The notes under the pieces: generated by a model
Told to the model about the DNA's origin: nothing
Database searches by the model: none
What the model saw: the letters and a program-made list of their open reading frames with translations, nothing else
Program-made: the position numbers and the translations under genes
In this document: positions 5,859 to 49,725 of the stretch, in pieces
Layout: each line of letters opens with the position of its first letter
Numbering within the stretch: the first letter of the stretch is position 1
From: Candidatus Troglogloeales bacterium
Lineage (GTDB): Bacteria > Nitrospirota > Nitrospiria > SBBL01 > SBBA01
Reading direction: 5' to 3'
DNA: 50,883 nt
Assembly: GCA_005239925.1 (NCBI GenBank)
Contig: SBBA01000218.1
Location: forward strand, 1-50,883

Positions 5859-6611
5859 ATGTCTGGACATTCTAAGTGGGCATCCATAAAACATAAAAAG
5901 GCCATTGTTGACGCAAAGCGGGGAGGGATCTTTACCAAGATTATTCGTGAGATAACAACGGCGGCTCGCATTGGCGGCGGCGATCCCAATGGCAACGCAC
6001 GCCTGCGGATTGCCATTACCAAGGCCAAAGAGGCCAATATGCCCGCAGACAATATTAAACGGGCCATTCAAAAAGGAACCGGTGAACTGCCGGGCGTCGC
6101 CTATGAAGAACTGACCTACGAGGGATATGGGCCGGGCGGTGTGGCCCTTTTGATCCATGTTATGACGGAGAACAAAAATCGTACTGCGGCTGAAATACGG
6201 CACCTCCTTGGAAAGTTAGGAGGAAATCTGGGAGAGTCTGGCTCTGTTGCCTGGATGTTCGATAAGAAAGGATATCTTACTTTTCCAAAAGAGAAGACCG
6301 ATGAAGAAAAGTTGATGACAGTCGCTCTAGATGCCGGCGCAGAAGATATTCGATCGGGTGATCCAGAAAATTACGAGGTGCTTACATCTCCAGCTGATTT
6401 TGAACGCATCAAAGAGGCACTGGTTGCCGCTCATTTTACACCTGTTTTTGCCGAAGTAACCTATCTGCCGCAGTCCACCGTTCCACTCGAAGGGCATGAT
6501 GCAGAGAAGATGCTGAAACTGATGGATGGGCTAGAATCTCACGATGATGTACAGGATGTTGTCGCCAATTTCGACATCTCCGATGACATCATCGAAAAGA
6601 TCAACGCCTAA
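5859..6611 (+). CDS. yebC: YebC/PmpR family DNA-binding transcriptional regulator
   Basis: [32 protein letters not shown] is the canonical YebC N-terminus; 250 aa. Confidence 0.95.
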
Positions 6612-6747
6612 CCCCCGCCGACGGGCGGGAGCGAGTGGAGCCCTCTCGTTGGGCGGGACGCCGCCTGCGGTCGGTCTGGGCATGCGGATGTCGTTACACG
6701 AGAAGTTATCTGCACAAAAACATAGATGTTACTCATACAGAGTTTAA
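6609..6747 (+). repeat. family A mosaic repeat, copy A1 (long form)
   Basis: TAA|CCCCCGCCGACGGGCGGGAGCGAGTGGAGCCCTCTCGTTGG...CATAGATGTTACTCATACAGAGTT|TAA. The left TAA is the yebC stop codon. Aligns by eye with copies at 11699, 14398, 36659, 43144, 43653 and 49594. Confidence 0.85.
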
Positions 6748-6772
6748 GGTGGGCTTAAGCCCGCTACCCAAG

Positions 6773-6877
6773 CGTCATTCCGGCGTGCTTCTAGCCGGAA
6801 TCCAGGGTTACTTCATTGCGGGCAGTGTCGAACGCTTTGGCTCCGACAGCTCTGGATTCCGGCTTAAACATTGCCGG
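6773..6877. repeat. family C palindromic repeat, copy C2 (right arm truncated)
   Basis: Arms are CGTCATTCCGGCGTGCTTCTAGCCGGAATCCAG and CTGGATTCCGGCTTAAACATTGCCGG. Same architecture as 18942..19021. Confidence 0.6.
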
Positions 6878-6895
6878 TCGGGACGCCGACTGCGG
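6874..6895 (+). repeat. family A fragment (GC-rich module only)
   Basis: CCGGTCGGGACGCCGACTGCGG matches the internal module GGGACGCC(G/A)CTGCGGTCGG of long family A copies. It replaces the expected AATGACG end of C2. Confidence 0.5.
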
Positions 6896-6941
6896 AAAAA
6901 AAGTATACGTTAAAACGTGTATAATGATAGAAAAGAGTCTA

Positions 6942-7442
6942 ATGCGCGTTTTAGGAATCGATCCCGGCATGAGGGTAACGGGCTTTGCTGTCCTGGAGGA
7001 AATATCGGGACGACTGTCGCTGATGCAGTCTGGGGAGATCGCCCCTCCCCCACAAATGCGAGATGGGCGATTAAAGTTTCTCTTTACGGAGATTTGTCAA
7101 AAAATTGAGCTGTATCAGCCCACTGTGATTGCATTGGAAGATACCTTTTTTGCCAAAAATGTTAAATCCGCATTAACGCTGGGACAGGCCAAAGGGGTTG
7201 CTCGGCTTGCGGCGGAGATCAATGACCTGCCTGTTTTTGAGTATGCCCCCACCGCCGTGAAGATGGCCGTTGTCGGGTTTGGAGAGGCCACCAAGGATCA
7301 GATTAAAGAAATGGTCTTTCAAATCTTAAAACCCGCTCAACGAATGAATTCAGAACATGAGGCTGATGCCGCTGCGGTAGCTATCTGTCACGCCCACTCC
7401 GCACAATGGCAGGCCAAAGTGGCCGTATCTGCAGTAAGATGA
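6942..7442 (+). CDS. ruvC: crossover junction endodeoxyribonuclease RuvC
   Basis: MRVLGIDPGMRVTGFAVLE start typical of RuvC (ATG 6942; ATG 6924 is an alternative). The stop overlaps the ruvA start (ATGA). Confidence 0.9.
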   Translation: MRVLGIDPGMRVTGFAVLEEISGRLSLMQSGEIAPPPQMRDGRLKFLFTEICQKIELYQPTVIALEDTFFAKNVKSALTLGQAKGVARLAAEINDLPVFEYAPTAVKMAVVGFGEATKDQIKEMVFQILKPAQRMNSEHEADAAAVAICHAHSAQWQAKVAVSAVR

Positions 7443-8044
7443 TTGCCTCCATTAACGGAATCATCACATCCAAATCGCCGGAATCATTGATCGTTGAAAC
7501 GGGCGGTATCGGTTATCAGGTTTTTATTCCGCTTTCAACCTATTACCAACTTCCAGAAATTAAAGAATCGGTTTCACTTTATATCCATACGCATGTTCGG
7601 GAAGACGCCCTGCAACTTTATGGTTTTTTATCGCCTATCGAAAAGCAGATGTTTCTGCTATTAACCAGCGTTTCTGGTGTGGGTCCAAAATTGGCACGCA
7701 ATATCCTATCCGGCATGGATGTTTTAGAGCTGCTCGCGGCGATTCGAAAGGGGGCCATTGAACAACTGCGGGCCATTCCCGGTATCGGCCCCAAGATGGC
7801 CGGAAGACTGGTTCTGGAGTTAAAAGAAAAGGCGATCTCCCTGGACGTGGCAACAACGCAGAAGGTGGAATCGGTGGGTGATGCCGTTTATGAGGATGCG
7901 TTATCGGCCTTAATCAACCTGGGATATCCGGAGCGAGAGACCCGACGGGCATTGGACCGGATTTTAAACGAGGCCAACGCGCCTGCCTATGAGGTCGAAA
8001 TCTTGATTAAACAGGCACTGCGCGTTTTATCCAAGGTAGGTTAA
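7439..8044 (+). CDS. ruvA: Holliday junction branch migration complex subunit RuvA
   Basis: [28 protein letters not shown]; HhH motifs ([16 protein letters not shown]). Confidence 0.9.
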
Positions 8045-8046
8045 AA

Positions 8047-9081
8047 ATGGAAGAGCGTATTTTTTCCGGCCAGACACAAAACGAGGAAAAGCGGATGGAG
8101 GTCAGCCTTCGTCCTGGCTCGCTTTCTGAGTATGTCGGCCAGCATCAAATCAAAGAAAATTTAAAAATATATATCGAGGCGGCCAGGAAGCGGGGCGATG
8201 TTTTGGATCATGTCATTTTTTACGGCCCGCCGGGGTTGGGTAAAACGACGTTGGCCAACATTATTGCACGGGAGATGGGGGTCAATATCAAGGCCACTTC
8301 CGGGCCGGCGCTTGAAAAGCCGGGTGACCTTGCGGCCATTTTAAGTAATCTCTCCGAAGGGGACATCTTTTTTATTGATGAGATTCACCGGCTGCATCCC
8401 ACGGTGGAAGAGGTACTCTACCCGGCGATGGAGGATTATGAGATTGATCTGATTATCGGCCAGGGGCCGTCGGCGCGGACGCTGAAGTTGGCGGTGCCCA
8501 AGTTCACGTTAATTGGCGCCACCACGCGGGCCGGATTATTAACCTCGCCCTTGCGGGATCGATTTGGTGTGATTAGTCGGTTGGAGTTTTATCGGCCCGA
8601 AGAGCTTTGCCGGATTGTGGTTCGATCTGCCGGGATATTACACATCTCGATTGACGAGGCGGCGGCATTGGAAATGGCCACACGAAGTCGGGGGACGCCG
8701 CGTATCGCTAATCGGATCTTGCGGCGTGTTCGGGATTTTGCCGAGGTAAAATCGAACGGCCATATTGATATGCCAACCACATTGCAAGCGTTAACGCAAA
8801 TGGAAATTGATGTCGCAGGACTCGATCGGATGGATCAGAAGTTGCTTCTTTTGATCATTGATAAATTTGGCGGGGGCCCGGTGGGGGTTGAAACGTTGGC
8901 CTCTGCATTGGGAGAAGAAAAGGAAACATTGGAGGATGTTTTTGAGCCGTTCCTGCTTCAAAGCGGCTATCTGGATCGAACGGCGCGGGGACGGGTGGCC
9001 ACCGACCAAAGCTTTGCCCATTTTGGCAAAAAACGTTCTTATGCCATAGGTGGCAGTAAGGAAGCCCCTCGGTTGTTTTAA
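8047..9081 (+). CDS. ruvB: Holliday junction branch migration DNA helicase RuvB
   Basis: Walker [18 protein letters not shown], sensor motifs; 344 aa. Confidence 0.95.
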
Positions 9082-9139
9082 TAGATTGACGAGCATGGCG
9101 TATTACGTTATCTTTCTTACACAAGGAAAGGAAGGAGAT

Positions 9140-9412
9140 ATGGACAAAATATTATCCGCACGTGTGGACGAATCCATTGTTCATCGGATTGGGTTATTGG
9201 CCCGACACTTATGTACATCAAAAAAACGGATTATTGAGGACGCGATTCGGACCTATGCCGCCCAGATTGATGAGGGCAATAGGCTTGATCCGCTTGAACA
9301 GACGTGCGGTGCATGGCGTCGCCGTGAGTCTGCTAACCGGATCATTACTGGTGCACGAAAAGTATTCAGTCAATCAATAGAGCCTCATCGCAGACCAGGT
9401 CTTTTGCCTTAA
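9140..9412 (+). CDS. ribbon-helix-helix (CopG/VapB-like) antitoxin, no adjacent toxin
   Basis: ATG 9140 preceded by GGAAGGAG. MDKILSARVDESIVHRIGLLARHLCTSKKRIIEDAIRTYA is an RHH fold signature. trpE starts 57 nt downstream, so no partner gene is present. Confidence 0.65.
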   Translation: MDKILSARVDESIVHRIGLLARHLCTSKKRIIEDAIRTYAAQIDEGNRLDPLEQTCGAWRRRESANRIITGARKVFSQSIEPHRRPGLLP

Positions 9413-9468
9413 TACAAAGCATTATCCAATTCCAGAGCTTGTAGTGAAGAAGGCATGGTAACACAAGA

Positions 9469-11136
9469 ATGATCACCCCCTCTTTCGAAGATTTTTCCAA
9501 AAAGACCCAGGACGGAAATCTCATTCCTGTCTATCAAGAGATTCTGGCCGATACAGAAACACCTGTCTCTGCATTCCTAAAAATACAAAGAGAGGCCCAT
9601 AACGCCTATCTCCTGGAAAGTGTGGAAGGAGGCGAGAAATGGGCGCGTTACTCCTTCTTAGGCACGAACCCTGCCATTACAATCAAAGGTTTTGGAAACG
9701 TTGTAGAGGTGACTGAAGGGAATCATTGTCAACGTATGACCAATGAAAATCCCTTACAGATCCTAAAAAAAATCCTGTCTCGCTATAAACCCGTTCAGGT
9801 GGATGGCCTTCCCCGGTTTTCGGGTGGCGCTATTGGCTATATCGGTTATGAATGTGTTCGCTTTTTTGAAGCGGCGACGGCCGCACCGGTCGCACCGGCG
9901 ACAGCGGATGGCCCGCTTCCGTTGGTTGCGGAAGAGATGCCGGTATTGTTACACCCATCTGAAAAGGAACAGCCACCACCGGACTTCTTCTTTTTAATTG
10001 CAGATACATTACTCATCTTTGACAACCTTAAGTGTAGGATTAAGGTTGTTTCGAATGCCTTTATCAAAGACGGCAATCTCAAAGAAGCCTATGAAAAGGC
10101 GGTCGCAAAAATCGAGGCCGCACTTCGCTGCTTGGAGGCTCCTCTTCAAAAATCAAATGCGCCTCTTATGTCATCACCCGTGCTACAAGAGGGAAGGGGA
10201 ACGCCGGAGTTGCCCCATTCGAATGTTACTCGTGAGTCGTTTTTAGAATCGGTAGAGAAGGCAAAGGAGTATATTCGTGCAGGGGATATTTTTCAGGTTC
10301 AGGTCTCACAACGGTTCTCTATTCCACTGACATGCGATCCGTTTGCCGTCTACCGAACCCTTCGGAGTATCAATCCCTCTCCCTATATGTATTATCTTCG
10401 GCTTGATGGGCTCCATGTGGTGGGAACCTCTCCTGAGGTTTTGGTTCGGTTGGAAGGCCGACAGGTAGAGGTTAGGCCGATTGCGGGTACCCGTCGCCGT
10501 GGTGCCACCCAAGAAAGAGACCTCGCTATGGAAAAGGAGCTTTTGGCCGATCCCAAGGAACGGGCGGAACATATCATGTTGGTTGATTTAGGCCGTAACG
10601 ATATTGGCCGTGTCTGTGACTATGGCTCTGTGCGGGTGGATGAACTGATGGTGATTGAACGATACTCGCACGTGATGCACCTGGTTTCCAACATTGTAGG
10701 CCATTTACGACAGGAAGAGGATGCCTATTCTCTTTTTGCGGCCTGCTTCCCTGCAGGTACGGTAACCGGAGCCCCAAAAATTCGGGCGATGCAAATTATT
10801 CATGAGTTGGAGCCGACGCAACGCAATTTGTATGCGGGCGCTGTCGGCTACTTTGGGTTTGATGGTAATATGGATACCTGTATTACGATTCGCACGATTG
10901 TTATTAGTAATAACACCGCAACGGTGCAGGCTGCAGCGGGCATTGTGGCCGATTCTATTCCCGCGCAGGAATATCAAGAGACCCTCAATAAAACCAGGGG
11001 GATGCTTCTAGCGATTGAGATGGCCCAGAGTGGCACCGGCCACCCCCCAACGGGGGGGAGCGAACGGACAGCGCCCGCAACCGGCGCCCCGGTCGCCGTC
11101 GGCGTCTCGACCGTTGATAACCGTGAGGAAGTATAG
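9469..11136 (+). CDS. trpE: anthranilate synthase component I, with repeat-derived internal insertion and C-terminal tail
   Basis: Chorismate-binding core ([57 protein letters not shown]). 555 aa, longer than usual. Confidence 0.9.
11043..11112 (+). repeat. family A-derived sequence embedded in the trpE 3' end (copy A2, rearranged)
   Basis: CCCCCAACGGGGGGGAGCGAACGGACAGCGCCC matches the family A left hairpin (compare CCCCAACGGGGGCAGCGAACGGAGCCCTCCC at 43656). It is translated as [12 protein letters not shown]. Confidence 0.55.
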
Positions 11137-11138
11137 GT

Positions 11139-11726
11139 ATGATTTTGATTATTGATAACTACGACTCCTTTACCTATAACCTAGTCCAGTACTTAGGTGA
11201 GATGGGGGAGACGTTGTCCATTTATCGAAATGATGCCATCACACTGGATCAAATCGCATCAATGCGACCCGACCGGATAGTGATCTCGCCTGGCCCATGC
11301 ACGCCAAAAGAGGCGGGGATTTCGGTTGATCTCATTAAAACGTTTGGCAAAAATATTCCGATCCTGGGGGTGTGTCTGGGGCATCAGTCCATTGGGGAGG
11401 CGTATGGCGGCGAAGTGGTACGGGCTGAAAGGTTGATGCACGGCAAGACCTCCATGATTTTACACGATGGAAAATCAATTTATCGTGGCATTCCCAATCC
11501 ATTTGAAGCCACACGGTACCATTCGTTGATTATTAAAAAGGAGTCTATGCCGGACTGTTTGGAAGTTTCATCTTGGACCGAGGCCGGTGAGATCATGGGG
11601 GTGCGTCACAAATCTTTCCCTGTGGAAGGGGTGCAATTTCACCCTGAATCAATTCTGACCCAGGTCGGCAAAGACCTGTTGAGGAATTTTTTGCGTTCTA
11701 ATCCGCCGACGGGCGGAAGCAAATAG
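11139..11726 (+). CDS. trpG: anthranilate synthase component II / glutamine amidotransferase
   Basis: ILGVCLGHQ catalytic Cys box, GVQFHPES. The last 9 codons (NPPTGGSK-stop) lie inside repeat A3. Confidence 0.9.
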
Positions 11727-11802
11727 ACAGCTCCCGTTGGTCGCTGTGGACACGCAGATATCATTACGCAAAAAATGTAGATGTTACCAACAGAGAATCT
11801 AA
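11699..11802 (+). repeat. family A repeat, copy A3 (short form)
   Basis: TAA|TCCGCCGACGGGCGGAAGCAAATAGACAGCTCCCGTTGG...TGTAGATGTTACCAACAGAGAATC|TAA. Closest by eye to copy A7. Confidence 0.85.
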
Positions 11803-11847
11803 GCATTAGAAAAAGATAGAAACGTTTTCTTCTTCCATTACGGAAAT

Positions 11848-12831
11848 ATGGTATCTCAATCTGCATCTCATCGTCTCAAACTCATTTTCATGGGAACGCC
11901 GGAGTTTGCTGTTCCTTCTTTTAAGGCCGTATTTCAATCGGAAGAGGTCATCGCCGTGGTCACACAGCCCGATCGGCCAAAAGGTCGCGGAATGACCCTG
12001 CAACCCTCTCCTATTAAGGAAGAGGCCCTCAGACAGTCCCTTCCGGTTTACCAGTCCGAACGAATACGACAGGATGCCGCCCTAATCAAGACCCTTTCCG
12101 ATCTGGCCCCGGACATGATTGTTGTTGTCGCGTTTGGACAAATTTTGCCGGAGACAGTTCTTAACATTCCTCGATTGGGTTGTGTCAATGTTCATGCCTC
12201 GCTTCTTCCTCATTATCGCGGCGCGGCGCCGATTCAATGGGCATTAATTGACGGAAAAGAAAAAACAGGTGTGACCACCATGATGATGGACAAGGGGATG
12301 GATACCGGCCCTATGCTTTTGCAGCGATCATTGGAGATTCAACCGGAAGAGACCGACATCATGCTTTCGCTTCGTCTGGCGGATTGTGGGGCCGAACTAC
12401 TGGTTGAGACCATGGAACAAATAAAAAAGGGAATATTGACCCCTATTCCACAGAAAGAAAATGAGGCGACATCCATCCGACTCTTAAAAAAAGAGGATGG
12501 TTTAATTCGTTGGGAGGACTCATCTGAGGCGATCTTTAATCGATGGAGAGGGGTTTTCTCCTGGCCGGGGACGACCGCGTATTATGGCGAGGAGCCTTGG
12601 AAAATTCTCGCTATGGAAATAGGGGAGCGGGAAGGAACATGGGGTAGGGCAGGGGAGGTGTTAAACATATCCAAGCGAGGGGTTGAAGTTGCCACGGGAA
12701 TAGGTTATATAGTAATTAGCCAATTAAAGCTGGCCGGGGGGCGGGCTATTTCGCCAAAAGAATACGCGGCGGGGCATCCCCTTGAAAAAGGATCGTTTTT
12801 TATCACAAAGGAGGACTTAGGAAACCCATGA
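11848..12831 (+). CDS. fmt: methionyl-tRNA formyltransferase
   Basis: [41 protein letters not shown] motifs. Confidence 0.9.
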
Positions 12832-13709: not shown

Positions 13710-14392
13710 AAATAAAAATTGCCCCCTCTATTTTATCCGCTGATTTCTCACGCTTGGGTGAAGAGATTCAGGCCGTTGAGGCCGCAGGGGCGGATTTAAT
13801 CCATATTGATGTGATGGACGGCCAGTTTGTTCCCAACCTGACCGTTGGCTCCATTGTCGTCAAAGCCGCCCGCAAGGTAACGCGCCTTCCGTTGGACGTC
13901 CATCTCATGACACTGACACCGGACGCCCTTATCCCGGACTATGTCAAAGCAGGGGCCGATATTATTACCGTGCATTGGGAGGCCTGTCCGCATCTTCATC
14001 GAACCCTTCAGGGCATCAAACGTTTGGGAGTAAAGGCTGGTGTATCCATCAATCCCGCCACGCCGGTTTCGTCCATAACAGACATTGTAGATGAGATTGA
14101 TCTTCTCCTGGTGATGTCGGTCAACCCCGGATTCGGAGGGCAGGAGTTTATCCCTAAGACGATTAATAAAATAAAAATGGCCCGAAAGATGCTCTCACAG
14201 GGCAAATCGCAGTCGGCGTCCCAACCGCTCTTGGAGGTTGATGGCGGGATTAATACTAAAAATGCCAGGCAGATTGCCGCGGCCGGCGCCGATATCTTTG
14301 TCGCCGGTTCGGCCATCTTTAATACGGGTGATTACAAGAAGGCGATTCGAGACTTACGCAATGAGAAGCCTGTTGTCAGAGTAAAGGGTTAA
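13706..14392 (+). CDS. rpe: ribulose-phosphate 3-epimerase
   Basis: [33 protein letters not shown] motifs; ATGA overlap with htpX. Confidence 0.95.
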
Positions 14393-14397: not shown

Positions 14398-14533
14398 TTA
14401 GACTCTTTATTGGTGACATCTACGCTTTTACGTAGATAATTTTCTGTATAACGACATTAGTAGACTCAGACCGACCGCAGTCGGCGTCCCGACCACGGAA
14501 GGGCTCTGTTCGCTTCCGCCCGTTGACGGATTA
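14398..14533 (-). repeat. family A repeat, copy A4 (long form, inverted)
   Basis: The reverse complement reads TAA|TCCGTCAACGGGCGGAAGCGAACAGAGCCCTTCCGTGGTCGGGACGCCGACTGCGGTCGG...ATCTACGTAAAAGCGTAGATGTCACCAATAAAGAGTC|TAA. Confidence 0.85.
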
Positions 14534-14604: not shown

Positions 14605-14982
14605 ATGGGCGCGACTCACATAACGGTTACAATTCGTAATCCAGCGATGCCGAGAAGAAGTTGGGAGGGGCTCTTCCTGGTGGATACCGGCGCCATTGAT
14701 TCACTTGTTCCACGGACACATCTAAAAGATATTGGCCTCAAACCCAAGGGCCAAAGAATATATGAGCTTGCCGATGGAAGTGAAGTGAGAATGGACATTA
14801 CCACGGCTGATATCGAATTTATGGGAGAGGTGGTGGGAGGAACAATCATTTTTGGAGATAAGGACACTGAGCCTATCCTTGGTGTGACTGCGCTCGAATC
14901 TGTAGGAATTGAAGTTGACCCAAGGAATCAACGTCTCAAACGTATGCCTACTACCCGCCTTAAACTTCTTAAAAAGGCCTGA
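14605..14982 (+). CDS. retropepsin-like (clan AA) aspartyl protease, single-domain
   Basis: 125 aa with the LVDTGA catalytic motif near the N-terminus and an ILGVTALE flap-like region. Confidence 0.7.
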   Translation: MGATHITVTIRNPAMPRRSWEGLFLVDTGAIDSLVPRTHLKDIGLKPKGQRIYELADGSEVRMDITTADIEFMGEVVGGTIIFGDKDTEPILGVTALESVGIEVDPRNQRLKRMPTTRLKLLKKA

Positions 14983-25093: not shown

Positions 25094-26278
25094 ATGAGAG
25101 CAAAAACATTAAGAAAAATTGGGGCATGGATTATTAGCGTCATCTTACTCTTACCGATTTACCCCATTCATGCCGCAGAAGGGACGCTCTGTAACTTGGA
25201 GAGTGGCACCTGTGGCGTCGGGATGGCGGTAAAAGGTTCCGATCAAGCACCGGTCACCATCATTGCCTATACCGATTTCCTTTCGCCGGTATCAAGCAAA
25301 GCGGTGACCACACTCTATACGATGATGAAGTCGTATCCGGATGATATTCGAGTCGTATTAAAACACTATCCGTCTCTAACAAACGACGAATCGCTCCTGG
25401 CCCATGAGGCCGCAGTAGCTGCGGAGACCCAGGGGAAATTCTGGGAGATGCACGACCAGCTTCTGACGCATCAGGGGAAATTAACCCAGGAAACATTGCA
25501 AGGGTTTGCCCGTCAGATTAAACTTGACATCCAAAAATTTCAAAAAACGCTGGAAACCCATTCCTACAAAAAGATTATTCTGAAACAGGTGCAGGAAGCA
25601 AAGGGATTTGGCGTCACCACCGCACCGACATTTTTTGTAAACGGTCAGAAGTTGGTTGGGGCACGTTCTTTAGAAAACTTTAAACAGGCGATTGACGTGG
25701 CATTAGGCATTGCCCCGCCCTCACCCAGTCAGCCGGTTGTTGCCCCTCCTGCTCCTGCGGCCATCGTTAAGATTGATTCCAAGGAGTCGGCTTCAATCGG
25801 TCCGGATGACGCTCCGGTGGTTATTGTCGAGTATTCTGATTTTCAATGCCCTTTCTGTGCACGGGTTGTTCCGACGCTCAAAAAGATCACCGAGAAATAC
25901 CCGAAGCAGGTTCGGATTGCCTTTAAGCATTTCCCGCTGGATTTTCATCCCAAGGCCAAACCGGCCCACATAGCGGCTATGGCGGCAAAGGAACAGGGAA
26001 AGTTTTGGGAGATGCATGATCGTATTTTTGAGCATCAGAGTGAAATGAGTGAAGAACACCTTGCCGCTTATGCCAAGGAGATCGGTCTTAATATGGATCA
26101 ATTTAAAAAATCGCTGAATAATACCGAGTACCAGAAAGAGATGGAGCAGAATATTGCTGAGGGAAGACAGTTGGGTGTTACCGGGACGCCTACCTTTTTT
26201 GTGAATGGCAAACGTTTGGTTGGGGCCAAACCGTTTGAGGCATTTGTCGAGATTATTGAAGAAGAGTTGAAGAAGTAG
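25094..26278 (+). CDS. secreted tandem DsbA/thioredoxin-fold protein (first domain lacks CxxC)
   Basis: Signal peptide. Two homologous ~170-aa DsbA-like halves joined by a Pro-rich linker. Domain 2 has YSDFQCPFCAR; domain 1 has YTDFLSPVSSK at the same position. Confidence 0.8.
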   Translation: MRAKTLRKIGAWIISVILLLPIYPIHAAEGTLCNLESGTCGVGMAVKGSDQAPVTIIAYTDFLSPVSSKAVTTLYTMMKSYPDDIRVVLKHYPSLTNDESLLAHEAAVAAETQGKFWEMHDQLLTHQGKLTQETLQGFARQIKLDIQKFQKTLETHSYKKIILKQVQEAKGFGVTTAPTFFVNGQKLVGARSLENFKQAIDVALGIAPPSPSQPVVAPPAPAAIVKIDSKESASIGPDDAPVVIVEYSDFQCPFCARVVPTLKKITEKYPKQVRIAFKHFPLDFHPKAKPAHIAAMAAKEQGKFWEMHDRIFEHQSEMSEEHLAAYAKEIGLNMDQFKKSLNNTEYQKEMEQNIAEGRQLGVTGTPTFFVNGKRLVGAKPFEAFVEIIEEELKK

Positions 26279-26346
26279 CCGCCAACGGGCGGCAGCGAAC
26301 GGAGCCCTCCCGTTGGGCGGGACGCCGCCTGCGGTCGGTCTGGGTA
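26276..26346 (+). repeat. family A repeat, copy A5 (left half only)
   Basis: TAG|CCGCCAACGGGCGGCAGCGAACGGAGCCCTCCCGTTGGGCGGGACGCCGCCTGCGGTCGGTCTGGG. The TAG is the stop of the DsbA-like gene. The copy ends 2 nt before the SDR ATG. Confidence 0.75.
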
Positions 26347-26347
26347 T

Positions 26348-27076: not shown

Positions 27077-27146
27077 GGGCGTTTCTTCTAGAACAGTCAC
27101 AAGATATTCCCTATTATCCTAGTGTAGTGTCGCATAAATAGCTTTA

Positions 27147-27288
27147 GGGCACCTCTAAAAACCGTAGCGAGCGGCCCAAATGCAAGGCGCACGGAGTGCA
27201 GGAACCGCAATGTACGCAGTGTACATGAGGATTCCGAGCACCGCGCAACGCAGTAGTTGGGTCACACAGTAGGTTTTTAGAGGTGCCC
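27147..27288 (+). mobile_element. family B MITE, copy B1
   Basis: GGGCACCTCTAAAAACC...GGTTTTTAGAGGTGCCC, a perfect 17-18 bp terminal inverted repeat. Flanked by TTTA on both sides (27143-27146 and 27289-27292). The interior folds into a long imperfect hairpin. Confidence 0.85.
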
Positions 27289-27311
27289 TTTACTTGCCCT
27301 ACACCTGATTC

Positions 27312-28651: not shown

Positions 28652-28676
28652 AGAGTCCGACTCACCTCATTCTTAT

Positions 28677-28836
28677 GGGCGCCTCTAAAAACCGTAATGA
28701 GTGACTCAAGTGCAAGGGCTACTACGCACAGGAGCCCCAATGGTCGCAGTGTACATGAGGATTCCGAGCACCCCAGGCGTCGTTACGCCCGCGCAACGCA
28801 GCAGTTGGGTCGCGCAATCGGTTTTTAGAGATGCCC
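28677..28836 (+). mobile_element. family B MITE, copy B2
   Basis: GGGCGCCTCTAAAAACC...GGTTTTTAGAGATGCCC. Flanks are TTAT and TTAA. The interior aligns with B1 and B3. Confidence 0.85.
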
Positions 28837-28924
28837 TTAAATGTGCTATTAAGAATTGAGGATGAATGGCCGATAAGAGATTGTAGAATAGTGCGTATGT
28901 TTCTATAATCACAAGGAGGAGATT

Positions 28925-34890: not shown

Positions 34891-36659
34891 CAGGAACGCC
34901 TCCTTCTCCAATATAAATCAAAAAGAGAAAACCCATATAAAAAGAGCGCTATAATCAAAAAGGGTACTGACTTTTCAATGGAAAGATGTCCATGCGCCGA
35001 GATGAGAAAACGGTCCCCTGTTAGGATGAGAATAAACAGAAAATAGAAAGGAATCATTAAGGAAAAGGTCAAGCCAGGCTTTTGCAGTACCATTTGCCCG
35101 CCACCCGGAAAGAAAAATAAAGGATAAACGCGTTTGGGAAGAGTTCCACTTTTTTTGGCAATGGACGCCTTTACATCGGCGCCGCATTCTTTGCAAACGG
35201 TATGATTGGAGAATGTCTTTTGGCAACGTTCACAGGTGGCTTTAAAACAGACTGAGCAAATGGAACCAGAAATAGATTGAGAAAAATAAATTGATACACT
35301 AACAAGCCCCATACTCAGGAAAAAAGCAAGGGACATAAACTCAAGGGCTGAAAAGTCACCCACCCAGGCCTGCCATATTTGATCCATATCGCTGCTTCCT
35401 GATTCCCTGATAAGATGAAGCGCCTCTTTCCAGAGATCCAGCGTTGTAAATCGCGCTTCGACAACAGGATATTTCGGATATTCAGAGACCAGTTGAATAT
35501 AATATTTTACCTTCTCAGGATTAATTTGCTTTGTTTCTTTATACTTTTCATTTCCCTCTTTAAAGGCAAGTCGTTCATTATGGACCTGACTGATATTATA
35601 GTGAGCCGCAACATCACTGGGAGCGGCAGCAATAGCCTTTTGATAATAGTCCATCGCCTTTTTAAAATCATCCCGATAAAATGCGATATTCCCCAGGTTG
35701 TTTAAGATCAAGGCCGAACTAGGATTTTTTAGAAGAGCCTCGTCGTAAAATCGCTCTGCGTTAGCAAAATCTTTTCTATTGGCATAGTAGGCCGCTGAGA
35801 GAAAGGATGCCTTCCAATCAACCTCCGCAGGCGAAAATGAAGGCGCGGACCATAAAAATTCGCCCTGTTGATTTTTAACCATCGCATTTAAAAGCTGTGA
35901 CCGTTGCGCCGTTAAAAGGGTAAACGAGGGAATAAGCAACAGGGAGGAGAAAACAAGCCCCATCATCAAACCAATAGCGGCCTTTTTTTCAGCAGGTTTA
36001 TAAAAAAACCAGAAAAAAAACAAGCTAATCAGCAAGAACCAAAAAGGAGGTAACAAAAAGAAAAGCAAAGCTGGAACAAGAGCGATTATCAATCCAATTG
36101 TAATCGGATAAAGTTGTTCCGTGAAATGCTCCTGAAAATAATGAATCCATTGGGGAACATACAACATAAAAACATAAAAAAGAAAGGTAAGTATGCTTGC
36201 GCAAATAGCTAAAAACAAACCAACTCCAAAAATACCAATAGAGGTTGATAAAAACCAGAAATGATTAAAAGAAAGCCGAAGAGCTGCGGCATATTCGTCT
36301 AATGTTTGAAGCATTTCACGTTGGGTTTCAAACCCGGCAATATCAGACAAGAAATAGTGAGGCAAAGGCGATTTAGGAGAAAAGGTAATGGCTTTTTTGG
36401 CCTCCAAAACTGCCGTAGCCGAATCCCCTCTTTCTAAGGCCTCTTCAGCAGAGCGTAAAAGCGTGTTCACAACTAAATCAGAATGTTCAACCCGGTGCTC
36501 TTTTCTCCAAAGATCAAGCTTTCCCCCTTCAACCACCTCTTGAACAAATGGCATCTCCTTAGCCAACAAGCAAGAAGAAGAGAGGACAAAAAACAGCAGC
36601 ACGATTAGCCCAACCCTCCGAGGCTGTATAGCGCTTATTGTAGGTCTATATACGTTCAT
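34890..36659 (-). CDS. polytopic membrane protein with TPR repeats and a Cys4 zinc-ribbon
   Basis: 589 aa. Signal/anchor, about 5 TM, three TPR units (AERFYDEALLKNP...YYQKAIAAAP...), CSVCFKATCERCQKTFSNHTVCKECG, then further TM segments. Confidence 0.65.
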   Translation of the reverse strand: MNVYRPTISAIQPRRVGLIVLLFFVLSSSCLLAKEMPFVQEVVEGGKLDLWRKEHRVEHSDLVVNTLLRSAEEALERGDSATAVLEAKKAITFSPKSPLPHYFLSDIAGFETQREMLQTLDEYAAALRLSFNHFWFLSTSIGIFGVGLFLAICASILTFLFYVFMLYVPQWIHYFQEHFTEQLYPITIGLIIALVPALLFFLLPPFWFLLISLFFFWFFYKPAEKKAAIGLMMGLVFSSLLLIPSFTLLTAQRSQLLNAMVKNQQGEFLWSAPSFSPAEVDWKASFLSAAYYANRKDFANAERFYDEALLKNPSSALILNNLGNIAFYRDDFKKAMDYYQKAIAAAPSDVAAHYNISQVHNERLAFKEGNEKYKETKQINPEKVKYYIQLVSEYPKYPVVEARFTTLDLWKEALHLIRESGSSDMDQIWQAWVGDFSALEFMSLAFFLSMGLVSVSIYFSQSISGSICSVCFKATCERCQKTFSNHTVCKECGADVKASIAKKSGTLPKRVYPLFFFPGGGQMVLQKPGLTFSLMIPFYFLFILILTGDRFLISAHGHLSIEKSVPFLIIALFLYGFSLFDLYWRRRRS

Positions 36660-36779
36660 TAGAGTCTTTGTTGTGACATCTAGGTTTTTTGTGTAGATAA
36701 TTAATTTTCGTGTAACGACATCCGCATGCCCAGACCAACCAACGGGAGGGCTCCGCTCGCTTCCGCTCGTAGCGGATTA
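36659..36779 (-). repeat. family A repeat, copy A6 (inverted, lacks GC module)
   Basis: The reverse complement reads TAA|TCCGCTACGAGCGGAAGCGAGCGGAGCCCTCCCGTTGG...CCTAGATGTCACAACAAAGACTC|TAA. The left TAA is the plsY stop. The right TAA overlaps the ATG of 34890..36659 (TAATG). Confidence 0.85.
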
Positions 36780-39347: not shown

Positions 39348-39369
39348 CACGGGTATTTCTATTACTAAA

Positions 39370-39530
39370 GGGCACCTCTAAAAACCGTAGCGAGCACTCA
39401 AGTGCAAGGGCTACTACGCATAGGAATCGCAATGGTCGCAGTGTATATGAGGATTCCGAGCGCCGTAGACGTCATCACGCCCGTGCAACGCAGTAGTTTT
39501 GGGCCGCGCAATAGGTTTTTAGAGGCGCTC
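39370..39530 (+). mobile_element. family B MITE, copy B3
   Basis: GGGCACCTCTAAAAACC...GGTTTTTAGAGGCGCTC. Flanks are TAAA and TAAG. The interior is near-identical to B2. Confidence 0.85.
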
Positions 39531-42677: not shown

Positions 42678-42696
42678 CCTCCTTAAGAAAAGGAGG
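42678..42696. terminator. 7-bp perfect hairpin between convergent genes
   Basis: CCTCCTT-aagaa-AAGGAGG, 5 nt after the fabH stop and 10 nt before the stop of the minus-strand gene. Weak U tracts. Confidence 0.45.
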
Positions 42697-42705
42697 AAGG
42701 TTATT

Positions 42706-42984: not shown

Positions 42985-43143
42985 ATGACCGCTATGGTAA
43001 CCATAAAACAGCTTTATTGTCAATAGGTTGTCTGCGTTTGCCTGCTTTACATATTAAATCTACGTTATTGACAAGGAGAACAAAAGCATGTTAGACCGTT
43101 TATTGCTTGAGACAAGAAAAGTGGCGTGTTTTTTGTGTACGGG

Positions 43144-43256
43144 GTAGACTTTCTGTTGGTGACGTTTATGTTTTTTGCGTAGATCATTTGTATGGCCTTA
43201 TCTTGTCCATAGCGACCAACGGGAGCTATCTATTTGTTTTCGTCCGTGGCGAATTA
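43144..43256 (-). repeat. family A repeat, copy A7 (short form, inverted)
   Basis: The reverse complement reads TAA|TTCGCCACGGACGAAAACAAATAGATAGCTCCCGTTGGTCGC...CATAAACGTCACCAACAGAAAGTC|TAC. Most similar to A3. Confidence 0.8.
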
Positions 43257-43280
43257 GTTGGGTATTATAAGGGATAATAA

Positions 43281-43652
<372 letters not shown>

Positions 43653-43655
<3 letters not shown>

Positions 43656-43767
43656 CCCCAACGGGGGCAGCGAACGGAGCCCTCCCGTTGGTCGGTCTAG
43701 GCCTACCGATGTTGTTACACAAAATGATCTACGCAAAAAACGTAGATGTTACCAGCGAATAGTCTAA
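43653..43767 (+). repeat. family A repeat, copy A8
   Basis: TAG|CCCCAACGGGGGCAGCGAACGGAGCCCTCCCGTTGGTCGG...ATCTACGCAAAAAACGTAGATGTTACCAGCGAATAGTC|TAA. The TAG is the glnB stop. The copy fills most of the glnB-glnD spacer. Confidence 0.85.
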
Positions 43768-43801
43768 GTAAAAATTTACCCCTAAAGGAGATTATACTGT
43801 T

Positions 43802-46363: not shown

Positions 46364-46371
46364 TCCCCCTT

Positions 46372-47823
46372 TTATTCTACCGAGTAACCGGACTCGCCAT
46401 GTTCAGAAAGATCCAAACCGGTTTTTTCGACTTCCTGCGTAGGCCTCAATCCAATCAGTGCTTTTACGATGTAAGCCAGAACCGTTGTCGCAACAACGGA
46501 CAGGATGATGGTTAACCCCATCGCCTTTAATTGTTCGATCCAGAGCGTTTGACCCACAACGTCTTTTAGATTGGTTAAAAGATTGGGATTGACTTCCGGT
46601 GTCGCAAAAACGCCGGTGAGAAAGGCCCCCAGGGTGCCGCCAACGGCATGAACCCCAAAGGTGTCCAAGGCATCGTCATAGCCCAACCAATGCTTTAGCT
46701 TGTAGCAGGCAAAGAAAGGCACTAGCCCGGCCAGTATGCCAATGATGACCGCAGACCCCGGCGTGACAAAGCCGCATCCCGGCGTGATCACCACTAACCC
46801 TGCCACTGCCCCAGAGCAAAAACCCAATACACTCGGTTTTTTATTCATAATATATTCCGCCATGGCCCAGGTAAAGGAGGCGACTGCGGCGGCCAGGGTC
46901 GTGGTCGTAAACGCATTGGCGGCAACACCATCCGCTGCAACGGCGCTACCGGCATTAAAGCCATACCAACCCACCCACAGCATCCCGGTGCCGACCATAC
47001 AAAGCACCATGCTGTGCGGGGCCATTTTTTCCTTTCCGAACCCTAAGCGTTTGCCTAAGATCAGGCAAAGCACCAACGCAGACCATCCCGAAGACATATG
47101 CACGACGGTTCCCCCGGCAAAGTCGATTGCCTTAATGGAGGCGTCGGCATTCCATACCCCGTTCATCATGCCGGTAATACCCCAGACCATGTGGGCCAGG
47201 GGAAAATAAACGACGAGCATCCATAGGCCGAGAAAAAGCATCAAGGCGCTAAACTTCATACGTTCGGCGATGGCGCCAATGATCAAAGCGGGCGTAATGA
47301 TGGCAAACATCAGTTGGTACATGGCAAATACGTTGTGTGACACCCAATAGGCATAATTCGTGTTAACAGCAGAGGTGACCCCTTTTAAAAAGGTAAAATT
47401 CAATCCGCCCAAAACAGGCCCCCCAACGTCAAATACCAAACTGTATCCCACGGCCCACCATAGAATACTGACCAAACCAGCGAGCCCTAAGCATTGGGCT
47501 AAAACGGACAAGACATTTTTTGTCCGAACGAGTCCCCCGTAAAAAAGGGCCAGGCCGGGCAACGTCATAAAGAGCACCAACAACGACGATGTCATCATCC
47601 AACCATTGTGGCCTGGGCCTGCACCGCCGATGTTGGAAGTGATCTTGGCATCTACAGCGTCGGAACCCCGTGCGCTATTATTCATATAGGCTTCCAAATC
47701 GGCTATTCTCTGTTCAATCGATGGGTCTGATGGGGCTTCTTCCGCCTTGACCCAGTGTAAGTCCACAGTAGCCAGCCCTAATACAGCGAGCACCAGTAAA
47801 AGCCACATCTTCATTCGTTGCAT
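46372..47823 (-). CDS. amtB: ammonium transporter (Amt family) with signal peptide
   Basis: 11 TM; DFAGGTVVHMSSG and GVHAVGGTLGA signature boxes. Confidence 0.95.
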   Translation of the reverse strand: MQRMKMWLLLVLAVLGLATVDLHWVKAEEAPSDPSIEQRIADLEAYMNNSARGSDAVDAKITSNIGGAGPGHNGWMMTSSLLVLFMTLPGLALFYGGLVRTKNVLSVLAQCLGLAGLVSILWWAVGYSLVFDVGGPVLGGLNFTFLKGVTSAVNTNYAYWVSHNVFAMYQLMFAIITPALIIGAIAERMKFSALMLFLGLWMLVVYFPLAHMVWGITGMMNGVWNADASIKAIDFAGGTVVHMSSGWSALVLCLILGKRLGFGKEKMAPHSMVLCMVGTGMLWVGWYGFNAGSAVAADGVAANAFTTTTLAAAVASFTWAMAEYIMNKKPSVLGFCSGAVAGLVVITPGCGFVTPGSAVIIGILAGLVPFFACYKLKHWLGYDDALDTFGVHAVGGTLGAFLTGVFATPEVNPNLLTNLKDVVGQTLWIEQLKAMGLTIILSVVATTVLAYIVKALIGLRPTQEVEKTGLDLSEHGESGYSVE

Positions 47824-47892
47824 ATCCAGCCTCCTTATTTGATGTCTAAAATCAGTATGATCCAGCCCCTACCGATTTTTATGCGTGCAGCC

Positions 47893-47921
47893 ACTCTACA
47901 AATTTGAAGAGGGTAAGTCAA
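47893..47921 (-). promoter_or_regulatory. candidate sigma70-type promoter for amtB
   Basis: The minus strand has TTGACT (47921-47916), a 17-nt spacer and TAGAGT (47898-47893); about 70 nt upstream of the ATG, which has an AAGGAGG Shine-Dalgarno. Confidence 0.35.
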
Positions 47922-48019
47922 CAGATCGTTATTGAGTAACATGAGTAACGACCCATAGACATAGACATTCTTTCTGGTTAAGAACGGAGAAGAGAGGGCA
48001 AGGAAGCAAGTGGGGTAGG

Positions 48020-48361
48020 TTAGGCCGAGAACGATTCGCCGCAACCACAGCTTCGTTTGGCATTAGGATTGATAAATTTAAAACCGCCTCCAACTAAGTC
48101 ACGGGAAAAATCAAGCGTCATTCCTCTGAGAAACGATGCGCTTTTGGGATCAACAATCACACGAATCCCTTCCATATCAAACGATTGATCCTCGGTCATG
48201 GCTTCCTTCTCGAAGGTGAGCTTATAGGACATACCTGAGCATCCTCCGACAACGACACCCACGCGCAGGAAGGTCTCTCCAATCTGCTTGGCTTGAATAA
48301 TACCTTTGACCTCTGCAATAGCCGTTTCGGTTAAAGTTAAAATATTGGCTGTTTGTTCCAT
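48020..48361 (-). CDS. iscA: HesB/IscA family iron-sulfur cluster insertion protein
   Basis: 113 aa; GGCSG and C-terminal CGCGESF. Confidence 0.85.
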   Translation of the reverse strand: MEQTANILTLTETAIAEVKGIIQAKQIGETFLRVGVVVGGCSGMSYKLTFEKEAMTEDQSFDMEGIRVIVDPKSASFLRGMTLDFSRDLVGGGFKFINPNAKRSCGCGESFSA

Positions 48362-48402
48362 GTTTTATCCTCCATTATAAATTATGAGCGATCTCCTACC
48401 GT

Positions 48403-49581
48403 CTATACCGAGAACATCTCGTATAAAGGCGACATCAGGCGCAGTCGTTTGACTGTTTCAACAACCCGTCTTCCGACATATTCCACTTCTTCTTCTGTAT
48501 TAAATCGGCCCAGTCCAAATCGAATCGAAGAATGTGCTAGATCACTTTCTATCCCCAACGCCCGCAAGACATAAGATGGCGTGGGCGTTGCCGTGGTGCA
48601 GGCTGACCCTGATGAAAGAGCCACCTCATTCATCGCCATTAAGAGCGACTCTCCCTCCACGTAGGCAAAGCTAATATTTAGATTGTGGGGCAGCCTTTCC
48701 GTCGGGTGCCCATTTAAATAGACCTCATCTAAACCATTCCAAATGATTTCCTGTAAACGATTCCGAAAACGGGCCAAACGCGCGCCTTCCTGCTCCATTT
48801 CTTCTTCGGCAATTTCACAGGCCTTACCAAAGCCGACAATCCCAGGGACATTTAGCGTGCCCGAACGGATGCCTCCCTCCTGTCCACCGCCGTCTATAAG
48901 GGGAGCCACACGGACACGCGGATTCTTTTTTCGAACATAAAGGGCGCCAACCCCTTTCGGCCCATACATCTTATGGGCCGATAAAGACATGAGATCAATC
49001 CCCATCGCATTCACATCAATGGGTATCTTCCCCGCCGCCTGCGCCGCGTCCGTGTGAAAAAGAACCCCCTTCTCTTTGGCAATCTTACCAATTTGAGCTA
49101 TCGGGTGAATCACCCCAATCTCATTATTGGCGATCATGATAGAGATTAAAATGGTCTGATCCGTAATTGCCGCCAAAACAGCCCCTGGATCAACAAGGCC
49201 ATCGGAATGAACCGGAAGATATGTGACCCTCATTCCCTGTTTCTCAAGCCGTAGAGCCGTATCTAATATGGCTTTATGTTCCGTGACCGCCGTAATAACA
49301 TGATTCCCTTTGTCACGGTAGGCCTCGGCAATCCCTTTTAAGGCAATATTGTTGGACTCGGTTGCGCCGCTGGTGATGATAATCTCTTTGAGATCGCAAT
49401 GAATCAGATGGGCAATTTGTCCACGGGCCTGTGCCACTACCTGCTCAGCCTCACGACCAAAAGAATGATTACGACTGGCCGCATTCCCAAATTTCTCCGT
49501 GAAGAATGGCATCATGGCAGTCAGTACACGTGGGTCAACCGGCGTGGTGGAATGATGATCCATGAAAATAGGGGTTTTCAT
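48403..49581 (-). CDS. iscS: cysteine desulfurase (NifS/IscS family)
   Basis: PLP-Lys box [12 protein letters not shown] and catalytic loop SSGSACTT. Confidence 0.9.
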
Positions 49582-49593
49582 TAGGCTTTCCCC

Positions 49594-49725
49594 TTAAGAC
49601 TCTCTGTTAATGACATCACTATTTTTTGTATAGATCATTTTCGTGTAATGATATCCGCATGCCTAGACCGACCAACGGGAGGGCTCCATTCGCTTCCGCT
49701 GGCGGATCCGCCCGTCGGCGGATTA
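49594..49725 (-). repeat. family A repeat, copy A9 (inverted; left arm partly duplicated)
   Basis: The reverse complement reads TAA|TCCGCCGACGGGCGGATCCGCCAGCGGAAGCGAATGGAGCCCTCCCGTTGGTCGG...CAGAGAGTC|TTAA. The left TAA is the iscR stop. The right end lies 12 nt from the iscS ATG. Confidence 0.85.

Follow-up and report, generated by a model that had tools for sequence, protein, structure and literature searches.

Why should a short DNA repeat begin, time after time, exactly where the preceding gene stops? The question is raised by the window analysed here, a stretch of 50,883 nucleotides from a Candidatus Troglogloeales bacterium of the phylum Nitrospirota (contig SBBA01000218.1, assembly GCA_005239925.1), and by an element in it that is here called Family A. 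Family A is a previously undescribed, hairpin-rich, non-coding repeat of 105-140 bases, of which the window holds 7 full copies, 1 half copy and 4 fragments. Orthologous sites that are filled in the window and empty in related organisms bear out an earlier reading of this DNA (the original prediction) as carrying a mobile or recently proliferating element, and it is very probable that Family A is a mobile non-autonomous repeat. The fuller account, on balance the preferred one, is that Family A is a lineage-restricted mosaic of this kind that was mobile very recently, is served by an enzyme acting in trans and docks at TAR (TAA or TAG).

Copies of Family A

Repeat finding over the whole window recovers Family A on both strands. 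An nhmmer profile built from the full copies finds these at E values of 1e-23 to 1e-33 and the half copy at 26276 at E = 4e-12, and a covariance model scores the full copies at 97-124 bits (Table 1). The eight copies of the original prediction are recovered by all three methods, and its consensus was reproduced by direct reading of the eight loci and by alignment. Its list of fragments was correct and incomplete: the remnant then placed at 6874 (here 6876-6942) and one within trpE are real, trpE holds two, and a module inside rpe had gone unnoticed. The flanking genes were identified as yebC, ruvC, trpE, trpG, fmt, rpe, a gene for a DsbA-like thioredoxin protein, pteridine reductase, plsY, glnB, glnD, iscS and an Rrf2/IscR regulator.

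That the contig was assembled from a metagenome is the only point in favour of chance similarity or an assembly artefact as the explanation. Against these stand eight copies at 97-124 bits, an independent Logan assembly (L001) that confirms the copy between iscR and iscS, and an orthologue of that copy in a JGI assembly (L003). With these independent assemblies the artefact explanation is already refuted, and its probability is practically nil.

The sequence family was not recognised in the original prediction, and the searches made here agree. Rfam gives no match to Family A at gathering thresholds and none at E <= 1 that overlaps a copy, and the plasmid and phage collections give none. The exact 22-nt core pattern is absent from collections of genomes, metagenomes and viral contigs (the metagenome set evidently being without the JGI sample that holds the element). 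When the frame-1 open reading frame (ORF) through c1 was compared with 1.84 billion proteins, only an unrelated repeat in its middle was matched. A literature search on Nitrospirota REP and RAYT elements found no relevant description.

Anatomy of the element

Read 5' to 3' on the strand that is co-oriented with the upstream gene, the element consists of TAA or TAG; a first hairpin, H1; AAGCGAACG; the left arm of a long stem (GAGCCCTCCCGTTGGT); an optional hairpin module, HM; a centre of variable sequence; a right hairpin, HR; the right arm of the long stem (ACCAACAGAGAG); and TC-TAA. H1 (TCCGCC-GACG-GGCGGA) starts 1 nt past the stop codon and has a G+C stem of 5-6 bp and a GACG loop. Its variants keep the stem: CCGCT-ACG-AGCGG in c5, GCCCC-AACG-GGGGC in c7, CCCCCC-AACG-GGGGGG at the 3' end of trpE, TTCGCC-ACG-GACGAA in c6 and CCGTC-AACG-GGCGG in c3. 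HM is an 18-nt hairpin unit, G[G/T]CGG-GACG-CCG[C/A]C, which has the loop of H1 with the arms swapped and occurs in two covarying versions (GGCGG-GACG-CCGCC and GTCGG-GACG-CCGAC). HR (ATCTACG-CAAAAAA-CGTAGAT) has a 7-bp A+T-rich stem and lies ~20 nt from the right border; in the fragment at 6876-6942 it reads GTATACG-TTAAAA-CGTGTAT, a C-G to A-T change with pairing kept, and the variant in c8 is also compensated.

These local hairpins are accompanied by a long-range stem, in which the core CTCCCGTTGGT (~27-45 nt from the left end) pairs with ACCAACAGAG (5-15 nt from the right end). The stem constitutes a subterminal inverted repeat (core CTC..GTTGGT with tail ACCAAC.GAG). Its inner helices are 74-96% paired; it reaches 11 bp in the copy of the sister organism R described below (GCCCTC/GAGGGC) and is lost in c1. 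The element termini themselves (TCCGCC... and ...GAGTC) are not inverted repeats of each other. The original prediction, which had spoken of two hairpins, an optional module and no terminal inverted repeats, therefore stands with regard to H1, HR and the very termini, and has to be amended on three counts: with HM there are three local hairpins, in addition to the long stem; the optional module is itself an independent hairpin unit; and the subterminal inverted repeat had been overlooked.

Pairing is conserved between copies. In a MAFFT alignment of 8 full copies 83.9% of paired cells hold a pair, as compared with 35-45% when the partners are slid, and 7 pairs have changed on both sides, as compared with 2.5 +/- 1.2 in shuffles (1 of 500). 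H1 is 95.7% paired and has compensatory changes in 4 of its 6 pairs. A model-fitted alignment of 14 sequences, which leans towards structure by construction, shows the same trend. The folding energies of whole elements are weak, 1-2.6 standard deviations below those of shuffles. A conserved central hairpin was considered and rejected: the TCGG...CCGA pairing on which it would depend exists only in c7 and the L003 copy. Promoter and terminator content of the element is nothing above chance.

Table 1. Copies and fragments of Family A in the window (extents of c1-c8 count both border trinucleotides; bits are covariance-model scores)
Feature	Extent	Strand	Bits	Description
c1	6609-6748	+	102.9	Full, with HM; left TAA is the yebC stop
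Fragment	6876-6942	+		5'-truncated copy with HM, variant right hairpin and tail; terminal TAA overlaps the ruvC ATG (TAATG)
trpE internal fragment	~9877-9963	+	14.9	Left and central part of the element; nhmmer match ~9880-9976, E = 1.9e-5
trpE 3'-terminal fragment	11040-11136	+	22.9	Covariance-model E ~1e-3; weak nhmmer match at 11045
c2	11699-11803	+	98.7	Subfamily-2, without HM; trpG enters 25 nt
HM unit in rpe	14205-14228	-		Single 18-nt HM, in frame, antisense; encodes ..SQSASQP..
c3	14398-14533	-	116.4	Full, with HM; antisense to both neighbours; right end 5 nt past the rpe stop codon
c4	26276-26347	+		Half copy with H1, core, HM and start of the centre; left TAG is the stop of the DsbA-like gene; right side joined to the pteridine reductase ATG
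c5	36659-36779	-	115.4	Full; occupies the entire spacer between plsY and a TPR gene; plsY stops at the left TAA, and the right TAA overlaps with the following ATG (TAATG)
c6	43144-43256	-	97	Decayed subfamily-2 copy; lies in a divergent spacer, upstream of glnB
c7	43653-43768	+	111.8	Full, between glnB and glnD; left TAG is the native glnB stop
c8	49594-49725	-	113	Full, between the Rrf2/iscR gene and iscS; 12-nt duplication of H1; left TAA is the iscR stop

Docking at stop codons

In c1, c4, c5, c7 and c8 the upstream gene is co-oriented with the element and has the left border trinucleotide as its in-frame stop codon. For at least five of eight left edges to fall on a stop codon has a probability of P = 0.001 relative to random TAA/TAG sites (the test drew on 58 genes and on 4,092 nt of intergenic DNA outside the elements; it counted 46 TAA/TAG stops and, over both strands, 340 intergenic TAA/TAG sites). 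The left flank reads YTAA or YTAG at 9/10 sites, c4 with its GTAG being the exception; YTAA forms the right end, and the polarity of the element relative to the left YTAR flank is constant at all sites. Both the coincidence with five stop codons and the fixed orientation 3' of TAA or TAG had been claimed in the original prediction, as had two further features that are found again here: the element fills the glnB-glnD, iscR-iscS and plsY-next gene spacers, and trpG reads into it. (In trpG an out-of-frame TAA is passed over and 8 codons are read into c2, ending 25 nt inside.)

Insertions lie exactly 3' of the stop codon, even within a 1-nt stop/start overlap, and both reading frames are kept. 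Where TG follows the right end, it restores, together with the TAA of the element, the start codon of the downstream gene, with a purine-rich AGAGAG ahead of it; the resulting TAATG fusion of stop and start is seen in c5 and in the fragment at 6876-6942, and also 12 nt beyond c8. H1 might have been imagined as a pre-existing terminator or REP target into whose vicinity the rest of the element was inserted. This was rejected, as a solo H1 stands behind no other stop codon; the rejection is qualified by the left module being kept alone, at two sites, in one of two organisms.

The two borders are less uniform than had been thought. TAA stands on both borders in 6/8 copies (TAA/TAA is read in c1, c2, c3, c5, c8 and the L003 copy); c7 has TAG/TAA and c6 TAA/TAC. 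TAA or TAR at both borders in 6/8 copies is compatible with a 3-bp duplication and with a target plus an element-borne TAA alike, and the empty sites in relatives fit either.

Filled and empty sites

GlnD, TrpE and TrpG place the window in Nitrospirota. The nearest named relatives, Candidatus Manganitrophaceae and 'Nitrospiria', are only ~53% (GlnD) and 60-68% (TrpE) identical, and among the species-representative genomes, scanned with GlnD, none is close. A sister organism, R, is provided by three contigs of JGI metagenome 3300045502 (L003, L006 and L007), 44.5 kb that are syntenic with the window. Shared sample and similar divergence imply that the three represent one organism: identity to the window is 88% for GlnD (L003), 85% for TrpE, 87% for TrpG and at least 90% for YebC (L006), and at least 90% for RmuC (L007). 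L037, from Hainich groundwater, is a further relative (YebC at least 90%); L004 and L005 are relatives at ~64% GlnD identity.

Sites of c1 with the fragment at 6876-6942, c2, c6 and c7 are empty in these relatives (the three R contigs and L037). Between yebC and ruvC both R (L006) and L037 have a 1-nt stop/start overlap (...AATGCT TGATG CGTGTA...) and no element; the window has ...AACGCC TAA, 330 nt made up of c1, an unrelated repeat and the 5'-truncated Family A copy, and then TAATG CGCGTT.... The 3' end of trpG, GAG TCT TAA TAA AGG in R (L006), where c2 is missing, is CGT TCT AAT CCG CCG... in the window, whose TrpG thereby gains NPPTGGSK. At the c6 site of L003 the 113-nt copy is missing and the flanks align cleanly. 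The glnB-glnD spacer, filled by c7 in the window, measures 26 nt in L003 and is absent in L004; since the C-terminus of GlnB (..GEQAL) and its TAG are unchanged, c7 must lie exactly 3' of the native stop. The copy c3 is absent from L006 along with the adjacent aspartic-protease gene.

Other sites are occupied in both organisms, by copies that have diverged. The orthologue of c8 (L003 6292-6429) has HM and ends in TAATG, while c8 lacks HM and carries the 12-nt H1 duplication; the orthologue of c4 (L007 12717-12798) lacks HM and keeps 35 nt of the right part that the window has lost. Both trpE insertions are common to the window and R. R also has material of its own: ~100 nt that belong to subfamily-2 stand upstream of fabH, and a further copy lies where L007 ends. 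The density of full copies is 7 per 50.9 kb in the window and 1 per 44.5 kb in R, and nhmmer and the covariance model detect no copy in 18 kb of the ~64%-identity relatives. Presence and absence between relatives, together with this contrast in density, imply that Family A is young, lineage-restricted and recently active, or at least quickly turning over.

The same comparison bears on a reading that the original prediction had held out as its alternative, namely a selectively retained intercistronic RNA element. As such, Family A might stabilise 3' ends, provide a site for processing, or act as a cassette that uncouples or re-initiates translation, and would be copied by recombination rather than transposition. 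Maintenance of the hairpins fits such a role, as does the sense orientation of 7/8 copies relative to the downstream gene; the spacers of glnB-glnD, iscR-iscS and plsY-next gene are filled, and the right end supplies AGAGAG and TAATG. (REP hairpins near stop codons are said, in work by Liang, Rudd and Deutscher of 2015, to affect mRNA decay and translation termination.) However, the housekeeping operons of the sister organism manage without the element, presence and absence alternating at 85-90% protein identity, and orthologous copies differ by gain or loss of a module and by several indels. Copies also lie within coding sequence and, in the case of c3, antisense; folding z-scores, at -1 to -2.6, are weak; Rfam offers no relative, and there is no conserved small ORF (indels shift the frames) and no strand asymmetry of wobble pairs. 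The selected-RNA reading is weakened to the point of being improbable. Effects on mRNA (3' stabilisation, uncoupling of translation or re-initiation) are plausible as by-products of a mobile repeat rather than as the reason for its existence; side effects on mRNA stability and translational coupling are likewise plausible.

Family A in coding sequence and the HM unit

The consensus, derived by hand from the aligned copies, is open in all three sense frames, so that copies in or fused to coding sequence are translated, as in TrpE, TrpG and Rpe. TrpE of the window has 555 aa, as against 486-521 aa in homologues. An internal insertion of 26 aa (element frame 3) coincides with the HMM match and is absent from 7 TrpE homologues; a C-terminal extension of 31 aa (element frame 2, PPTGGSER...) coincides with the fragment at 11040. 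In TrpE of R the insertions are shortened or rearranged, and the C-terminal extension contains two tandem HM units (..GRDADCGRDADCG). Within the element-derived TrpE insertion of the window, at 9878-9899, there is also a 9-nt tandem repeat, CGGCCGCAC, in 2.4 copies. A conserved small ORF bridging stop and start, after the manner of MIRU, was rejected, as indels shift the frames between copies.

Rpe of the window has one antisense HM unit (..KSQSASQP..), +4 aa relative to PDB 1rpx. HM is a unit that is gained, lost and tandemly expanded independently of the rest of the element. At the same place the rpe gene of R (L006 10026-10190) contains an in-frame tandem array of HM (SASRPQ repeats) that is interrupted by a run of N; this array is a coding minisatellite that broke the scaffold.

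A scan of metagenomes for the HM pattern gives 29 hits, mostly coding coincidences in high-GC DNA. Among individual contigs, L026 (1007-1034) has an HM-like unit 3 nt past a TGA stop, in the same sample as the 64% relative L004, and L028 (775-820) has two tandem HM-like units after a probable TAA stop. L027 (8830-9006) has GCGAC-TGCG-GTCGC hairpins beside GGGACGCCGACTGCGGTCGG, arranged as an inverted pair 115 nt apart, like a REPIN; the same hairpins occur beside GGGACGCCGACTGCGGTCGG in the high-GC metagenomic contigs L018, L021, L031 and L032. The likeness of these high-GC hairpins to HM may be convergent.

[quoted passage not shown] A REP unit is an imperfect palindrome of 20-40 nt with a GTAG-type head, found as singlets or inverted doublets. 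On this reading H1 and HM would play the part of REP units, to be recognised by a RAYT protein (a domesticated Y1 transposase), and a BIME-like mosaic of 105-140 nt would spread as a block. H1 and HM are indeed short G+C-rich hairpins with a common GACG loop and swapped arms; HM occurs solo, in tandem arrays and in two covarying versions; the architecture is a mosaic with optional modules; and HM-like hairpins lie just past stops in L026 and L028, with REPIN-like inverted pairs in high-GC L027. Yet the hairpins measure 14-16 nt instead of 20-40 nt and lack a conserved GTAG-type head, it is the entire composite that is repeated, in a single orientation, and not a singlet or inverted doublet, neither the scanned ORFs of the window nor the Pfam tables for the contigs of R show a RAYT gene, and most of the 29 pattern hits are coding coincidences. 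A REP/BIME-type origin is accordingly quite unlikely.

Proposed mobilisation

The preferred account of Family A as a non-autonomous repeat, mobile very recently, can be put as follows. An enzyme encoded elsewhere would insert the element in trans, in one orientation, 3' of (Y)TAR. Each copy would keep its 5' TAA and bring a 3' TAA, and targets would in this way be regenerated, which would account for the composite cluster from c1 to 6942 and for the doubled tail of c8. Purifying selection would then remove copies that hit coding frames or promoters, and those surviving would be found at 3' boundaries of genes, at stop/start overlaps and in tolerant loops of proteins.

The best guess for the mobiliser would be an enzyme of the HUH/Y1 type that recognises hairpins in single strands, as favoured by oriented insertion at a short target, termini that are not inverted and hairpins that are compensated. 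Given mobility, a PATE- or RAYT-like enzyme of this type is nonetheless a tentative choice, and a DDE-type MITE (miniature inverted-repeat transposable element) with 3-bp duplication a somewhat less probable one, and the largest single share of the probability falls on neither of the two. Were the HUH route correct, excised single-strand circles would show a junction at which ...GAGTCTAA is joined directly to TCCGCCGACGG.

Several observations weigh against this account. No transposase-like gene is present among the ORFs scanned in the 50.9-kb window, and no transposase, Y1/HUH included, appears in the Pfam tables of L003, L006 and L007 (44.5 kb), so that the enzyme suspected in the original prediction has not come to light in either place. 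H1 and HR are unrelated and lie 1 nt and ~20 nt from the ends, off the layout of IS608, and TAA at both borders is equally expected from a 3-bp target duplication; with end hairpins unlike each other and a differing geometry, the attribution to IS200/IS605 (PATE) or RAYT/REP made in the original prediction is not established. The stop-codon bias comes from few data, ~12 independent sites. The glnB-glnD spacer of L003 resembles the first ~25 nt of c7, so that this site may be a deletion remnant and not one that was never occupied, and only for yebC-ruvC does an outgroup give the direction of gain or loss, glnB-glnD being a less clean second case. Counts of G.T and A.C are symmetric and mark no strand as the folded one, so that the folded strand, and folding of RNA or of DNA, cannot be told apart. 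Finally, template-switch repair can yield compensatory changes in short palindromes without selection.

On another reading Family A would be a conventional MITE moved by a DDE transposase that duplicates 3-bp TAA (or 2-bp TA, or 4-bp YTAR) and recognises the arms of the long stem, with H1 as a 5' passenger. The parent insertion sequence would then have the ends GAGCCCTCCCGTTGG and CCAACAGAGAGTC. TAA/TAR flanks on both sides of 6/8 copies, identical 4-bp flanks of c2, c3 and c8, and a real core-tail inverted repeat of 6-11 bp (best kept in the L003 copy) are as this reading would have them, and a classical MITE with terminal inverted repeats, family B, coexists in the window. But the left arm of the inverted repeat lies ~27 nt inside, and still H1 travels along in every full copy and is not found solo behind other stop codons. 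This inverted repeat is both short and imperfect, c1 has lost it, nothing resembling a duplication stands beside the stem arms, and the flanks of c7 and c6 do not match. A MITE of this kind is therefore considered unlikely, though a better candidate than the REP/BIME-type or the selected-RNA reading.

A bolder version of the preferred account, doubtful as it stands, sees in Family A an 'operon-safe' transposon, built to invade stop codons and stop/start overlaps by means of its own TAA and purine-rich restart. In such a mechanistic version of docking the element's own hairpins would guide single-strand insertion to TAR, and regenerated targets would cause nested arrays.

Relation to known elements

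In behaviour the nearest described elements are MIRU, REP/BIME mosaics and RPE. MIRU (mycobacterial interspersed repetitive units; Supply et al. 1997, as summarised in PMC3184786) are there described as intercistronic, oriented units of 40-100 nt that vary in tandem number. In that summary MIRU resemble Family A in lying within operons in one orientation, in having ends that overlap stop and start codons, in showing empty and filled sites between relatives, and in having G+C-rich internal inverted repeats; their tandem copy-number variation compares with that of the 18-nt HM unit. In contrast with MIRU, Family A belongs to another phylum, is dispersed instead of tandem, has no conserved internal ORF, and has three hairpins and a long stem. 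The RPE (Rickettsia palindromic elements; PMC3184786) are palindromic, of 100-150 nt, open in several frames, and make in-frame insertions and 3' extensions in conserved proteins. Comparable cases in Family A are the internal 26 aa and C-terminal 31 aa of TrpE, the +8 aa of TrpG and the +4-6 aa of Rpe; unlike RPE, most Family A copies are intergenic and docked on stop codons. Going by the descriptions in PMC3184786, the likeness to MIRU and RPE would be functional; homology is unlikely because the phylum is different and no match was found in any of the collections searched.

With REP, BIME and REPIN, Family A shares short G+C-rich hairpins, a mosaic make-up with optional modules, an extragenic position just 3' of genes, co-transcription with them, and (presumably) mobilisation in trans by a single-strand HUH enzyme. 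It differs from them in that its hairpins H1 and HM (14-16 nt) are half as long and without GTAG-type head, there are no inverted doublets, a composite of 105-140 nt spreads, and HM forms arrays in direct tandem.

IS200/IS605 elements and PATE likewise carry a hairpin close to each end and are without inverted repeats at their very termini, and they insert in fixed orientation 3' of a short sequence (a tetra- or pentanucleotide) that the 3' end of the element resembles. Their insertion leaves no target duplication. Some members of the family use T-rich ...TAA targets. In IS608, similar imperfect palindromes lie subterminally at both ends, at a distance from the cleavage site of 19 nt on the left and 10 nt on the right, and are bound by one TnpA (PMC3201880). 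The end hairpins of Family A, by contrast, share no sequence and lie 1 and ~20 nt from the ends; pairing between guide and cleavage site is not recognisable, and TAA on both sides may be a duplication.

Classical MITEs (Correia/NEMIS, ERIC and family B) resemble Family A in size and in being non-coding, dispersed, co-transcribed and able to form a fold-back stem. They have terminal inverted repeats and a clear target duplication, where Family A has an imperfect subterminal repeat and an asymmetric 5' module. Integron attC sites were considered and rejected as well. An attC site has the inverse core site RYYYAAC at its 5' end and the core site GTTRRRY at its 3' end, and lies behind cassette genes; Family A has them the other way round (GTTGG ... 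CCAAC) and is flanked by housekeeping genes in conserved synteny (yebC, glnB, iscR, plsY). Family A fails testable defining features of each of IS200/IS605 derivatives, REP/RAYT, classical MITEs and attC. The verdict is that it constitutes a new and unusual mosaic family within the known class of small mobile repeats, with REP-, MIRU- and RPE-like behaviour, and not a new kind of system.

Other features of the window and its relatives

Family B, the second repeat of the window (27142-27290, 28672-28838 and 39365-39530), is ~150 nt long and a classical MITE with perfect 18-bp terminal inverted repeats (AGGGCACCTCTAAAAACC ... GGTTTTTAGAGGTGCCCT); one of its copies has a sub-threshold Rfam match to the Xanthomonas small RNA sX9 (29.7 bits, gathering threshold 44). 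A third, unrelated palindromic repeat with arms CCGGAATCCAG / CTGGATTCCGG occupies 6749-6873, between c1 and the truncated copy. Its translation (..HSGVLLAGIQGY..SSGFRLK..) is 79% identical to a 69-aa metagenomic ORF (P0241), which implies that this repeat exists elsewhere too.

The window and R also differ in gene content. The ammonium transporter gene amt (46372-47823), between glnD and an iscA-like gene, is absent in L003 (4702-4720), and a clan-AA aspartic protease gene (14605-14982) is found in the window only and not in R. Conversely, L006 has genes for a DNA methyltransferase and an HNH nuclease (6168-7618) between trpG and fmt, at the place of window positions 11803-11848. CTP synthase (pyrG, 61-1674, minus strand) is divided into two ORFs, one for the N-terminal synthase domain (655-1674) and one for the GATase domain (61-609), separated by stops and a change of frame: a frameshift, a pseudogene or an assembly error. 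Inside lepA (5553-5617, plus strand) a sub-threshold Rfam match to AsrC, the antisense RNA of rseC (28.5 bits, gathering threshold 111), is probably due to chance.

Implications

With Family A, a repeat family of clear limits becomes known from a lineage of Nitrospirota that has hardly been studied. Its importance is limited by the narrowness of that lineage. There are practical consequences: the repeats break assemblies (the scaffold gap in rpe of R) and mislead gene callers (TrpE and TrpG with their extensions); in such genomes they can be flagged with the model from this analysis.

What makes the family useful for study is a set of unusually clean natural before-and-after sites: a TGATG overlap that has become TAA-[element]-TAATG, the glnB-glnD and iscR-iscS spacers with their precise occupation, and element sequence that is translated within TrpE, TrpG and Rpe. 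These open testable questions: how small repeats invade operons without polar damage, how repeats become segments of proteins, and how a coding minisatellite arises from a hairpin unit of 18 nt. If the 'operon-safe' version should prove true, the upstream gene would still terminate and the downstream gene still initiate after an insertion, and the element, with all three frames open, would be able to colonise essential operons and even coding sequence. If docking at stop codons were mechanistic rather than a matter of survivorship, Family A would exemplify a principle of target choice that has not been described for bacterial elements.

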